A stretch of DNA of 64,000 nucleotides from a plasmid. This document shows, piece by piece, positions 12,001-18,000 of the stretch. The stretch is from NCBI RefSeq assembly GCF_988242995.1, contig NZ_OZ547044.1. The stretch is one strand, 5' to 3'. How positions within the stretch are numbered: the stretch's first letter is position 1; every line of letters starts with the position of its first letter. Position numbers: made by a program.

Positions 12001-15000
12001 TCCCCATTGACAGGCCAGGGACAACCGCGAGCGGTTGCCCCCACCCTGCCAACAGGTCGGCAGTTGCCCACAATACCACCGGCTCAAGCAACAGGATTTT
12101 TTTATATTTTTGTTTTTAAAAGAAAAAAGCGGCCGTGCTCTAGTGGCATGGCCGCGTTACGTGGTCCTATCAGGGGCTTGTGGCTCTTGCGCCTCCTCGG
12201 ATCGACACAAGTGCCGATCACTGCGGCGGGGCGCTCCTGGCTCAAGCTGAAAAGCGATCAGTATCCGCACCAGTGGCGACGGCGTTCCCTCCACGCATTC
12301 GGGCCGGGCCTCCACTCAACGGCTAACCCCTCGGCCATGAGGGTTTGCCCCACGTCCCGCCCGTCGATCAGCAGGTGAACAAGGCGGCGGTCGTACTTGT
12401 CGGCTTGGCCGGAATCGACAACCTCGATGCGCTGAGCGTTGGCAACCAGTTCGCGGAGGCGTGCGGTTGCCTCGCGGCCCTTCGTCAGCTCGGCGTCGCA
12501 CCTGGGCTTGTAGGTTTCCGGGGTGTCAATCGACAGCAGGCGCAAGCGTTGACCGTTGTATCGTAACCGTCCGGTGATTCCACCTTGAGCCAAATCGCCT
12601 GCCGACCAAAAGGCTCGAAGCTTACCACCCGGTCGATTCCGGTCAGATCCAGAAACGCCTCGTCGATGGAGTAGACATCCACTCTCGATGCCAGAGCTTC
12701 CAGGGTCGTCATCACCCGCCGGCTTATATCGCCATTTGTGTGGAATAGAGAATCAATTGGAACGGGGGCTTTGCTCGCCCCCCCTTGAACTTCTCATACC
12801 CAACCTGTTTGGCTATAGCTACTGAGGAGATCGCGGTGGCCCACCAAATCTTCCGGTCATCCTGTTCAATTACACCGCTAGCCGTACCCAGGAGGTGCCG
12901 CAGCGCCTCCTGGAGGCAGAAAGGCGTCGAGCGTATAGGTTGCTGGGCATGCGCGGCGCAAGTTCATCAGAAAACTCAATCCAAGGGCAAGATCGGCCGA
13001 GCGGAGATGGCACTGACTCTTATCAACAAGCTCTACGGCATCGAGCGCGACATGGAAGAGGCGGGCGATGCCCAGCGATACCAGACGCGCCAGTCGCAAA
13101 GCCAGGCTTTCCTGGAGCAACTGAAAGCTAGGCTGGACAAAACCCCTCCCCAGGTCACGTCGTCAAAGTGCCTTGGGCAAGCAATCAATTGCCTTGCGAG
13201 CAACTGGTTAAAGCTGATCCGCTACATCGAAAGGGGGACACCTGCCCATCGACAACAACCCTGCCGAGCGGGCGAGCCACCTTCTCATGTACATATGACC
13301 AAAGCGTCGCCCGTCTCCTCCCGTTATGTCATGCCTACCCACGACGGAGTATTGACGGTCTCTGTGCGCCAGAGCATAGTTTTCCCGAAGGGCGCTTAGG
13401 TACATATCTTCATGTGCTGTCCAGGCGCAGTTGCGTTTAGAGTACGTGTCCAATCAGTTTTAAATGGGTGTGAACATGAGAGCAGAAACTGAATCGCGGA
13501 TTTTTTCGGTGGATGAATATGTTCGTCCGTCTAACGGCGAACCGATTCGTTCGGTTGTTCTGGAAACCAATGACTCTGTCGTCGTTGTTTGGCACGCCCA
13601 CCCTGGGCAGGAAATAGCTTCCCATGTACATCCTCACGGCCAAGATACTTGGACGGTTATCTCAGGTGAAGCCGAATATCATCAAGGTAACGGCATAGTC
13701 ACTCATCTTAAAGCTGGAGATATTGCGATCGCAAAACCTGGGCAGGTACATGGTGCAATGAACTCTGGCCCCGAACCTTTTATATTTGTTTCAGTGGTTG
13801 CGCCGGGCAATGCCGGTTTTGCGTTGGCTGAGAAATAGGCGAAAGGCCTGAGAGGAAACTGATGAATACACGATTATTTACGTTCGCTGGTGGAGAAACG
13901 GGTGTTTGGCGCGTTGTTCGGATGGATGCCGTGGCGGGAGCCCCTCTCCCTGGAATCCCCCGGCTCGACGTAGCCGCTGGCTCTGTTTCGCCGCAGCCTT
14001 TGGGCACCAAATGGCTTCTTCGCGGGATAACGAGTAACGAGCGTTATGTCGTGCGTGAAGAGAAGGATCGTCTCGTGGCGAAGCAGCCAAGTTTGGGTCG
14101 AGCAGAGGCCACCTGTGCCGCCCTGATCCCTATCCGGAAAAACCCCTCATGGTGGGGACTGGCTCAAGACGAACGCCGGAAGATTTTTGAGGAGCAGTCC
14201 CGTCACATTCACATTGGGCTCCAATATCTCCCTGCTGTGGCCCGTCGTCTCCACCATTGTCGGGACCTGGGCGAGAGCGAACCCTTCGACTTCTTGACGT
14301 GGTTCGAATATTCCCCGTCTGATGAGCCGGGCTTTAACAGGCTTTTGGCCGAACTCCGGGCCTCGGTGGAGTGGAAGTATGTCGACAGAGAAATCGACAT
14401 CCGGCTAGTGCATGAGCCGGCCTAGTATCAGGTTTAACTGCGATCTCCGTGCGGCATACACCTGCGACACCCGCAGCCCAGCAAAGCCCGGAAAATCTAG
14501 TGTGTCTAATAACTTAGGAGTAACACGACACGTATGCCTAGCGAGCCACCAGTCGCTTGGGAAATTTTCTACTTATGGCCTCCTCTTTCTCTCATCGATC
14601 TCCCAGGGCATATCCTGCCGTCTAGAGTTGGCACCTTGTCCAGCTTTCGAAGAAGGCTCTCCATACACGTCCGGCCTACACCTTGTTAGGTATGGCCGGT
14701 TTCCAGTTGTGGGGCAATAGCTCGTCGATGGCGTTGTTCTTCTGTGTCGGCAGGCGAGTCAGCACATCCTTCAGGTAGGCATAGGGATCATGCCGATTCA
14801 GCTTCGCTGACTGTATTAGGGTCATGACCGCAGCCGCACGTTGACCACTGCGCAGTGAACCCGCAAACAGCCAATTGCTGCGCCCCAGCGCCCAGGGTCG
14901 GATCTGGTTTTCCACCCAGTTGTTGTCGATGGGCACAGCGCCATCGTCCAGGTAGCGCGTCAGCGCTTCCCAACGTTTGAGGCTGTAATCCAGGGCTTTG

Positions 15001-18000
15001 GCCGTGCCGGAGCCATCCGGCACTTTCTGGCGATGGGCCAGCATCCACTGATGCAGCGCATCGGCAAGGGGTTTGGCTTTGGTTTGCCGGATTTCCCGCC
15101 GCATATCCGGTGGCAGATCTTTGGTTTCCCGCTCGATCTCGTAGAGTCCACCGATGTATTCCAAGGCCTTGGCCGCCAATTCGCTCTTGTTGGCCTCGTG
15201 CAGGTCATAGAACTTGCGCCGGGCGTGGGCCATACAGCCGATTTCGGTAATGCCGTTGCCGAACCCGGCCTTGTAGCCAGCGTAATCATCACAGACCAGC
15301 TTGCCCCGCCAGTCACCCAGGAAGGTTCGGGCGTGTTCGCCTGCACGGCTGGGTGCGAAGTCGTAAATAGCTGCCTTCAGGTCGGCAAACGGTGTGGTGC
15401 AGTAGGCCCAGACGTAGGCCTTGTGGGTTTTCTTCTTGCCCGGGGCCAGCATGCTGACCGGGGTTTCATCGGCATGCAGAACACTGTGTTCCAGCAGAGT
15501 ATTTCTCAACGCATCCACCAGCGGCTGCAACTGCACACCACAGGCACCCACCCATTCGGCCAGGGTGGAGCGCGGGATTTCCAGGCCGGCACGGCCGAAC
15601 ATGCGTTCCTGACGGTACAGCGGCAGATGGTCGGCATACTTGGCCACCAGCACCTGGGCCAGCAGGCCAGCGGTGGGGATGCCTTTGTCGATCACCTGCG
15701 GTGGCACCGGTGCCTGGATCAACGTCTCGCAGCTGTCGCAGGCCCATTTGCCCCGGATGTGACGTTCAACGGTGGGCACTGTTGCAAAGTTAGCGATGAG
15801 GCAGCCTTTTGTCTTATTCAAAGGCCTTACATTTCAAAAACTCTGCTTACCAGGCGCATTTCGCCCAGGGGATCACCATAATAAAATGCTGAGGCCTGGC
15901 CTTTGCGTAGTGCACGCATCACCTCAATACCTTTGATGGTGGCGTAAGCCGTCTTCATGGATTTAAATCCCAGCGTGGCGCCGATTATCCGTTTCAGTTT
16001 GCCATGATCGCATTCAATCACGTTGTTCCGGTACTTAATCTGTCGGTGTTTAACGTCAGACGGGCACCGGCCTTCGCGTTTGAGCAGAGCAAGCGCGCGA
16101 CCATAGGCGGGCGCTTTATCCGTGTTGATGAATCGCGGGATCTGCCACTTCTTCACGTTGTTGAGGATTTTACCCAGAAACCGGTATGCAGCTTTGCTGT
16201 TACGACGGGAGGAGAGATAAAAATCGACAGTGCGGCCCCGGCTGTCGACGGCCCGGTACAGATACGCCCAGCGGCCATTGACCTTCACGTAGGTTTCATC
16301 CATGTGCCACGGGCAAAGATCGGAAGGGTTACGCCAGTACCAGCGCAGCCGTTTTTCCATTTCAGGCGCATAACGCTGAACCCAGCGGTAAATCGTGGAG
16401 TGATCGACATTCACTCCGCGTTCAGCCAGCATCTCCTGCAGCTCACGGTAACTGATGCCGTATTTGCAGTACCAGCGTACGGCCCACAGAATGATGTCAC
16501 GCTGAAAATGCCGGCCTTTGAATGGGTTCATGTGCAGCTCCATCAGCAAAAGGGGATGATAAGTTTATCACCACCGACTATTTGCAACAGTGCCCCCGGA
16601 GCTGGATAAGCAACGAACGTCCTGGCCTGCTTTTCGATCTGGCGACAGGGTGGCTTATGCAACATCGTATTATTCTCCCCGGAGCCACTACGCTGACCCG
16701 GTTGATTTCAGAGGTAAGGGAAAAGGCGACGTTGCGCCTGTGGAACAAACTGGCACTGATACCGTCAGCCGAACAGCGTTCACAGCTGGAGATGCTGCTG
16801 GGGCCAACTGATTGCAGCCGCCTGTCTTTACTGGAATCACTGAAAAAGGGCCCTGTGACCATCAGTGGTCCGGCGTTTAATGAAGCAATTGAACGCTGGA
16901 AAACTCTGAACGATTTTGGCCTGCATGCTGAAAACCTGAGTACACTCCCGGCTGTGCGCCTGAAAAATCTCGCACGTTATGCTGGTATGACTTCGGTGTT
17001 CAATATTGCCAGGATGTCACCGCAGAAAAGGATGGCGGTTCTGGTTGCCTTTGTCCTTGCATGGGAAACGCTGGCGCTGGATGATGCATTGGACGTTCTG
17101 GACGCCATGCTGGCCGTTATCATCCGTGACGCCAGAAAGATTGGGCAGAAAAAACGGCTCCGCTCGCTGAAGGATCTGGATAAATCTGCATTGGCGCTCG
17201 CCAGCGCATGTTCGTACCTGCTGAAAGAAGAAACACCGGACGAATCGATTCGTGCTGAGGTGTTCAGCTACATCCCAAGGCAAAAGCTGGCTGAAATCAT
17301 CACGCTTGTCCGTGAAATTGCCCGGCCCTCAGACGATAATTTTCATGAAGAAATGGTGGAGCAGTACGGGCGCGTTCGTCGTTTCCTGCCCCATCTGCTG
17401 AATACCGTTAAATTTTCATCCGCACCTGCCGGGGTTACCACTCTGAATGCCTGTGACTACCTCAGCCGGGAGTTCAGCTCACGGCGGCAGTTTTTTGACG
17501 ACGCACCAACGGAAATTATCAGTCGGTCATGGAAACGGCTGGTGATTAACAAGGAAAAACATATCACCCGCAGGGGATACACGCTCTGCTTTCTCAGTAA
17601 ACTGCAGGATAGTCTGAGGCGGAGGGATGTCTACGTTACCGGCAGTAACCGGTGGGGAGATCCTCGTGCAAGATTACTACAGGGTGCTGACTGGCAGGCA
17701 AACCGGATTAAGGTTTATCGTTCTTTGGGGCACCCGACAGACCCGCAGGAAGCAATAAAATCTCTGGGTCATCAGCTTGATAGTCGTTACAGACAGGTTG
17801 CTGCACGTCTTTGCGAAAATGAGGCTGTCGAACTCGATGTTTCTGGCCCGAAGCCCCGGTTGACAATTTCTCCCCTCGCCAGTCTTGATGAGCCGGACAG
17901 TCTGAAACGACTGAGCAAAATGATCAGTGATCTACTCCCTCCGGTGGATTTAACGGAGTTGCTGCTCGAAATTAACGCCCATACCGGATTTGCTGATGAG

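Follow-up and report, generated by a model that had tools for sequence, protein, structure and literature searches.

The DNA analysed here (the window) is a stretch of 64,000 nucleotides from a plasmid (NCBI RefSeq assembly GCF_988242995.1, contig NZ_OZ547044.1), and this report concerns a pair of genes in it, encoding a cupin and a chlorite dismutase (Cld), together with the transposon remnant that carries them. Both genes are intact and lie on the plus strand. The cupin gene (13464-13838) encodes 124 aa with a Cupin_2 domain (Pfam, E 2e-13), and cld (13862-14425) encodes 187 aa matching Chlor_dismutase (Pfam PF06778, E 4e-7). cld starts 23 bp past the end of the cupin gene and has an AGGA-type ribosome-binding site ahead of it. 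Pieces of IS66-family transposases are found on either side, at 12914-13285 and 14676-15774, and the right-hand one is cut by IS26 at the junction 15774/15775. An earlier note, made from the sequence alone, had recognised two small intact genes between an IS66 fragment (placed at about 12972-13262, close to the measured limits) and an IS66 transposase truncated by IS26, and all of this was borne out. The protein families, which that note had assigned tentatively, were upheld by domain searches and by the structures of identical or 95%-identical proteins. We conclude that positions 12563-15774 are very probably the first 3,212 bp (71%) of a 4,525-bp cargo-carrying transposon of the IS66 family. 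Elements of this kind have been published under the name tIS66, which is also used below for the present one.

A scan of one genome per species returned Clds identical to that of the window in Alcanivorax sp. DSM 26293, Marinobacter goseongensis and M. manganoxydans. The DNA of these loci is identical to window 12563-15774 and runs on past the IS26 cut. Exactly 4,525 bp are common to the three genomes at 100% identity, and the flanks are unrelated. The complete element has the order left inverted repeat (IRL), tnpA, tnpB, tnpC, cargo and right inverted repeat (IRR), and its transposition genes carry the domains HTH_Tnp_1 (tnpA), TnpB_IS66 (tnpB) and DDE_Tnp_IS66 (tnpC, 514 aa). The complete block is also present on six enterobacterial plasmids; it occupies, for example, 6702-11226 of locus L002 and 18374-22898 of pYUSHP6-3 (NZ_CP073770.1). 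All complete copies are identical, and 12563-15774 shows 0 differences from the complete unit.

The outer terminal inverted repeat, which is the functional IRR, is the 29-bp sequence GTAACCGTCCGGTGATTCCACCTTGAGCC at 12563-12591 on the plus strand. It matches the IRL of the element, GTAAGCGTCCGGTGATCCCATCTTGAGCC, at 26 of 29 positions, and the unit ends with the reverse complement of GTAAGCGTCCGGTGATCCCATCTTGAGCC. Identity of 100% to the complete units begins exactly at 12563, an 8-bp duplication abuts the repeat in five complete copies, and no other IS66-type terminal repeat of this kind occurs in the window. The left start of 12785 given in the earlier note has to be moved 222 bp outward to this repeat, the real boundary. 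Perfect 8-bp duplications are found in the Alcanivorax and the two Marinobacter genomes (GCGAGATG, GCCGATTA and CGCTCAGC). The three plasmids examined with flanks (E. coli/Klebsiella) all carry the block in a Tn5053-like mer transposon, between tniQ and tniR, with the duplication ACAGGTAC, while on a fourth plasmid (IncC) it adjoins an Rhs gene with the duplication ATTACACA. Perfect duplications are thus found at five different sites in total; the copy in the window has one end deleted. The GTAA-type terminal repeats, the 8-bp duplications and the three-gene layout together form the signature of the IS66 family. A search around the 2.4-kb IS66 core alone found no target duplication; it is the 4.5-kb unit that is bordered by them. 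That the 4,525-bp unit is mobile is deduced from its identical, duplication-flanked copies. The inverted repeat I7 of locus L002 (8798-8812 / 11262-11276) was also considered as the ends of the insertion sequence; it was ruled out because the stretch common to the three genomes and six plasmids ends at L002 11226, with a canonical GTAAGCG terminus there.

The occurrence of the complete unit at five independent sites confirms a recurring association of the pair with IS66, and the domain searches did not return unrelated families. The suggestion that the two genes are passengers of a decayed IS66-type element therefore stands in substance, since the unit is bounded by IS66 repeats, and its anatomy differs from the one pictured in the earlier note. 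The right-hand IS66 piece (14676-15774, minus strand) is the tnpC remnant of tIS66 (DDE_Tnp_IS66, E 6e-107; NCBIfam transpos_IS66, E 1e-127). It comprises the 365 C-terminal residues and the stop codon, 100% identical to residues 150-514 of the 514-aa TnpC of L002. The IS26 that truncates it (15775-16594, minus strand) has its terminal repeat GGCACTGTTGCAAA from 15775 and a transposase open reading frame at 15827-16549. Lost to IS26 are the first 149 codons of tnpC, tnpB, tnpA and the IRL, so the window copy cannot move by itself.

The cargo between tnpC and the IRR spans 12592-14663 (2,072 bp). Next to the IRR lies a umuC fragment (12596-12733, minus strand, about residues 78-123), which matches positions 84-123 of an NCBIfam UmuC subfamily model (E 5e-10) and, in a tblastn search with the split umuC of Pseudomonas sp. 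WN033, shows 65% identity over 12599-12769. It is followed at 12734-12866 by a homologue of the left end of a 4,845-bp cupin-cld/tyrosine-recombinase unit (80% nucleotide identity to L006 7106-7234). The left-hand IS66 piece (IS66a, 12914-13285, plus strand) comes next and has no element end. Within an open reading frame at 12785-13399, DDE_Tnp_IS66 (Pfam, E 2e-15) is matched by nucleotides 12914-13237, and a frameshifted tail reading LPIDNNPAERA extends the piece to about 13285. As only model positions 143-250 of 284 are matched, the piece is an internal, frameshifted fragment of a tnpC. Its tail (13199-13285) is present in Pseudomonas-type loci, which are without 12867-13198. These units have the tail but not the right-hand insertion sequence, and the piece therefore predates the split of the two lineages. 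It is old debris, unrelated to the right-hand insertion sequence and itself part of the cargo. After the operon, the cargo closes with the 3' end of a 721-aa tyrosine-recombinase gene (14569-14663, minus strand; last 30 codons and stop), cut off by the IS66 insertion; residues 692-721 of the recombinase gave 74% identity at 14572-14664 by tblastn. At 13400-13799, where the cupin gene lies, the G+C content falls to 47%, while the cargo on either side and the IS66 core have 57-60%; this is consistent with a mosaic origin of the cargo.

The source of these fragments can be recognised in Pseudomonas, Stutzerimonas and Atopomonas genomes, which carry a cupin-cld pair of the PaCld type with 92% nucleotide identity to 13463-14663. 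This pair sits on the separate 4,845-bp unit, which is identical in three genera (L006, L011 and L012; the L006 7106 region is the start of the stretch that is 100% identical among them). Besides the pair, the unit encodes the 721-aa recombinase, which carries a Phage_integrase domain, and a 339-aa tyrosine recombinase, both convergent with cld. At L012 (Pseudomonas sp. WN033, 6002-12619) it splits umuC at codon 77, with umuD adjacent. This suggests that the 4,845-bp unit is a small integrative element targeting umuC. The cargo of tIS66 corresponds to one edge of such a umuC insertion by an older mobile element, consisting of the umuC stub, the left end of the unit, the IS66 remnant, the operon and the integrase stub. 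At L006 the left flank of the unit differs and contains an HTH gene and an IS21-family element. Stutzerimonas chloritidismutans AW-1 has two copies of the cupin-cld unit (L009 8929-11189 and L010). In one of them the 721-aa recombinase gene has been entered, at another site, by a different element of the IS66 family, which lies in opposite orientation and whose TnpC is 73% identical. This is a third independent IS66-family event beside this gene pair.

We propose the following history for the passenger transposon. A canonical IS66 element would have inserted into the integrase gene beside cld, and its own right repeat would then have lost the terminal GTAAC. The transposase could subsequently have used a second IS66-type repeat 2.1 kb outward, at 12563, by which the intervening block became cargo. 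This outer repeat is more like the IRL of the element than like an IRR. One copy of the resulting tIS66 may have inserted into a thermonuclease gene, after which IS26 would have removed the transposition genes, leaving a remnant that moves within an IS26-bounded segment on resistance plasmids of Enterobacteriaceae. The homology to the recombinase gene of the Pseudomonas-type loci ends at 14663, and the stop codon of tnpC is 12 bp away. Directly adjacent, at 14664-14692 (plus strand), is the degenerate original IRR of the IS66 core, where the terminal GTAAC is lost and the window reads TACACGTCCGGCCTACACCTTGTTAGGTATGGCCGG (start TACACGTCCGGCCTACACCTTGTTAGG). An 86-90%-identical insertion sequence on plasmid pMAQU02 of Marinobacter nauticus VT8 has its IRR, GTAACCGTCCGGCCATCACACCTTGTCAGGTATAGCCGG (start GTAACCGTCCGGCCATCACACCTTGTCAGG), at exactly the position of 14664, overlapping the end of tnpC. 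On pMAQU02 (L083 1147-4321) we also noted three adjacent tyrosine-recombinase genes, in the recombinase-in-trio layout, that interrupt the tnpC of this IS66 relative.

The target of tIS66 is a 5'-truncated thermonuclease gene (nuc; 12258-12562, minus strand; Pfam SNase, E 2e-10), whose annotated start at 12593 is placed within the IS66 inverted repeat. Among plasmid records, 461 contain the nuc fragment, roughly the same ones that contain the pair. A remnant of a left-hand IS26 (263 bp, 11185-11447, minus strand) lies beyond it; by blastn this copy is complete in pKPN5, in direct orientation with the right-hand IS26. Window 11185-16595 is 99.98% identical to pKPN5, a plasmid of K. pneumoniae MGH 78578, on which identical cld, cupin and thermonuclease genes lie between two complete direct IS26 copies. 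The IS26-bounded segment can disappear in one piece: a deletion of about 4,357 bp, comprising cld, the cupin gene, a hypothetical gene, 'SamB' and the thermonuclease gene, has been described in some isolates of one patient (PMC6375827). The surrounding window, its downstream side included, matches K. pneumoniae multiresistance plasmids with tet(A), aac(3)-IIe and blaOXA-1.

The Cld protein (WP_001097412.1) scores 30.3 bits with Chlor_dismutase, for which the Pfam cutoff is 25. Its matches in the PDB include 9GTJ (4e-121), 5K8Z (6e-59) and 3QPI (2e-55), with strong matches also to the dimeric clade-2 Clds of Cyanothece and Nitrobacter. It has a short single-domain subunit of 187 aa that aligns over its full length with dimeric Clds of 188-193 aa, and it is 95% identical to PaCld of Pseudomonas aeruginosa (PDB 9GTJ) over all 187 residues. 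The earlier note had proposed a check of the haem-binding residues. All catalytic residues are kept, and so are 16 of the 16 residues checked that are haem-binding, catalytic or at the dimer interface according to the PaCld paper (PMC12525007). These include, at PaCld positions, the proximal haem ligand H115, the distal catalytic R128, the proximal hydrogen-bond network K93 and E170, W97/W98, and R105, which is typical of clade 2. No hydrophobic N-terminal segment was visible by eye in the start of the protein, MNTRLFTFAGGETGVW. On this comparison, the window protein is predicted to be a clade-2, dimeric, cytoplasmic-type haem-b Cld that would convert chlorite to chloride and O2.

PaCld catalyses this conversion with a kcat of about 1,100 s-1 and a kcat/KM of about 1.1e6 M-1 s-1; the hypochlorite (HOCl) arising during its turnover inactivates it. 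Clade-2 Clds leak HOCl, which kills the enzyme. The earlier note had called the function of the pair on a plasmid unclear. For Cld this can be dropped, since the protein is identical to the cld product of MGH 78578 pKPN5, KpCld, the enzyme that Celis and colleagues characterised in 2015. KpCld reportedly evolves O2 from chlorite, with a limited number of turnovers and with leakage of HOCl, and a cld knockout reportedly grows worse with chlorate under nitrate-respiring conditions. The physiological role of Cld in enterobacteria is probably chlorite detoxification, as judged from that single knockout study. It would likely shield nitrate-respiring cells from the chlorite that nitrate reductase makes from chlorate; an alternative target could be exogenous chlorite or chlorine dioxide in the environment.

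The cupin has the same sequence as WP_001348195.1 of pKPN5. It also matches PDB 3H8U at 100%, without any difference; that structure is entered as an 'uncharacterized conserved protein with double-stranded beta-helix domain' and carries no functional assignment. A full-text literature search for '3H8U' found no paper, and no cupin activity was published in the papers searched. Both cupin motifs are recognisable, namely G48-x5-H54-x-H56-x4-D61-x6-G68 and G85...P92-G-x2-H96-x3-N100, and H54, H56, D61 and H96 are predicted as the likely metal ligands of a mononuclear site. The linkage of the cupin to Cld is robust. The cupin gene lies 27 bp upstream of cld in 11/11 loci with a Cld of at least 95% identity. 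Cupins of 76-89% identity are neighbours of Clds that diverge down to 63-65%, and beside the Clds of only 63-65% identity the cupins have 76-81%, in other orders and spacings. These were seen in Piscinibacter and Castellaniella (L028, L029) and in Psychrobacter (L036), where the cupin is better conserved than the Cld relative to the window proteins and is located either downstream of cld (134-bp gap) or upstream of it (226-bp gap). From the differing order and conservation it follows that cupin and cld have been brought together anew, or reordered, on several occasions. Barnum & Coates (PMC9751292) report this cupin subfamily together with Cld in 40 genera, in 1,487 genomes; where a Cld is identical across genera, 90% of its neighbourhoods include the cupin. 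A linkage of cupin and Cld is also reported by Clark et al. 2013 (PMC3735179). Fitness defects specific to chlorite have been described for a cupin gene of the Azospira perchlorate-reduction island (PMC4436054). Because clade-2 Clds leak HOCl, our best guess, a tentative one, is that the cupin may be an accessory protein for chlorite or reactive-chlorine stress, maybe handling the HOCl that leaks from Cld. We think it rather improbable that the cupin is a metalloenzyme, so far uncharacterised, that acts on chlorine oxyanions, such as by quenching the hypochlorite escaping from Cld, from which disinfectant tolerance and plasmid co-selection would follow. If this were true, cupin-cld would raise the tolerance of hospital Klebsiella and E. 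coli to chlorite, chlorine dioxide, hypochlorite or neutrophil oxidants, and the use of disinfectants would co-select the resistance plasmids that bear it.

The region upstream of the operon (13286-13463, plus strand) is about 84% conserved with the Pseudomonas-type loci. It contains a weak sigma-70-like site, TTGACG-17-CATAGT, at 13352-13380, and an Rfam scan of 11400-15900 gave no RNA family at E<=0.1.

Among 72,556 plasmid records, 534 contain the 962-bp pair, and in 479 of these the identity is >=99%, so it is not a chance pattern. Klebsiella accounts for most of the records (382), followed by Escherichia (57), Enterobacter (33) and Pseudomonas (30). Each exact protein occurs on at least 1,000 contigs of a large protein collection.

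Several points weigh against the reading developed here. Only one end of the element survives in the window, and transposition of this copy is not demonstrable. The similarity of the inner IRR relic is modestly above chance (75/25,542 windows score as well), and the argument for it therefore depends on its position, which agrees with that of the IRR in the VT8 relative. No uninterrupted nuc target was found among the plasmid records; since the nuc fragment co-occurs with the pair, insertion of tIS66 probably preceded capture by IS26. The promoter scan of the operon gave one site against 0.9 expected by chance, so that the promoter is putative, and the operon may or may not be expressed from this plasmid. 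The accessory role of the cupin is a tentative suggestion, and the Azospira cupin may not be its orthologue. The spontaneous loss among the isolates of one patient had no obvious consequence, so that the segment may often be selectively neutral (PMC6375827).

A rival view is that the pair is neutral hitch-hiking DNA in Enterobacteriaceae, kept by linkage to IS26 and resistance genes and without function there. All copies have the same sequence, a sign of recent spread and not proof of selection, and cld is rare in host-associated metagenomes according to Barnum & Coates (PMC9751292). Against this, both open reading frames and all catalytic residues are intact, and the pair was captured repeatedly and independently by different mobile elements. 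In addition, a knockout of cld in the same strain reportedly grew more poorly with chlorate under nitrate respiration. We therefore regard neutral carriage as unlikely, less so than the two alternatives that follow.

In vivo, the Cld-like protein could be a related protein that handles haem, for instance a peroxidase or a coprohaem decarboxylase (ChdC/HemQ). It has a modest Pfam score, no NCBIfam model matched it, and the Cld superfamily also takes in ChdC and DyP. The distal Arg128 and the His115-Glu170-Lys93 network are present, however, and these are marks of functional Clds. Together with 95% identity to PaCld, with its high kcat on chlorite, and with identity to KpCld, they make this alternative very improbable. 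The same low probability is given to the view, also implied by the earlier note, that the IS66 remnants are parts of one element, either its two ends or two flanking copies of a composite transposon enclosing the pair. IS66 similarity does exist on both sides, and the transposase reading frames converge on the pair. The left-hand piece, however, shows only 25% amino-acid identity to the right-hand TnpC, it is internal and has no repeat of its own, and its tail is found in units that have no right-hand insertion sequence. The boundaries with target duplications are 12563 and the lost IRL and not the two IS66 pieces. We therefore rejected a single element made of the two pieces and retain tIS66, with the left-hand piece as cargo.

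Some further features were noted around the segment. A complete IS26 at 10365-11184 (plus strand) abuts and truncates the oppositely oriented copy at 11185-11447. The 0.8 kb that separates this IS26 remnant from the thermonuclease fragment is unannotated and contains, at 11755-11834, a tandem repeat of 21 bp, TCCGTCTATTACCCACCCGAA, in 3.8 copies with 79% matches, which could be an iteron-like array or a leftover of a donor replicon. On the other side, a Tn3-family transposase fragment (a 716-aa open reading frame starting inside IS26) occupies 16595-18655, with the IS26 at 15775-16594 on one side and a further IS26 at about 18656-19475 on the other, as is typical of resistance regions built as IS26 mosaics.

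The enzyme, the structure of the cupin and the travel of the pair on mobile elements are already published, and so is a statistical association of Cld with IS66 transposases, IS26, thermonuclease and umuCD (PMC9751292). The effect on current understanding is little. What is added is a clean anatomy for a segment that occurs on several hundred plasmids of Klebsiella, E. coli and Enterobacter, which helps annotation where the pieces are usually called 'transposase', 'SamB' or 'hypothetical'. It also traces a route from environmental bacteria to clinical plasmids, from a Pseudomonas-type umuC element through intact tIS66 in marine Marinobacter and Alcanivorax and on a few enterobacterial plasmids. 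Full-text literature searches did not find an explicit 4,525-bp tIS66 with repeats and duplications (ISfinder was outside their scope); the unit may lack a registered name and may have kept its activity on enterobacterial plasmids.

Compared with known systems, the window gene encodes the same 187-aa sequence as the KpCld gene of MGH 78578 (Celis et al. 2015, Biochemistry 54:434) and sits in the same IS26-bounded nuc-cupin-cld segment as on pKPN5. The window differs by the additional IS26 that cuts the left-hand IS26, and the gene itself is unchanged. PaCld shares the numbering as well as H115, R128, K93, W97/98, E170 and the residues of the dimer salt bridge, whereas it differs by about 10 substitutions and travels on the 4,845-bp tyrosine-recombinase unit and not on tIS66. 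The direct IS26 copies that bracket the 4.3-kb nuc-cupin-cld segment in pKPN5 resemble an IS26 pseudo-compound transposon or translocatable unit; unlike such a structure, the cargo has no resistance gene, and the left IS26 of the window is itself truncated. The mobile modules of type-II cld and cupin-2 described by Clark et al. 2013 (PMC3735179) and Barnum & Coates 2022 (PMC9751292) belong to the same subclade and have the same cupin partner. Their Table 1 links Cld to IS26, the IS66 transposase, thermonuclease, umuC/umuD and integrases. In the searchable text of these papers the association is statistical or by neighbourhood, including an 'IS26 composite', and no IS66-bounded 4,525-bp unit with repeats and duplications is described. 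A counterpart in structure is the tIS66 ISPa75-fosZ (PMC12888890). ISPa75 has 2,996 bp with one gene, whereas the cargo here comprises 2.07 kb, a mosaic of debris and a two-gene operon; the hosts here are marine Gammaproteobacteria and enterobacterial plasmids, and the window copy is truncated and immobile alone. Both elements have the same tnpA-tnpB-tnpC order with the passenger DNA placed after the gene of the DDE transposase, near-identical terminal repeats (GTAAGCGTCCGG for the IRL and GTAACCGTCCGG for the IRR of ISPa75-fosZ), and duplications at several sites.

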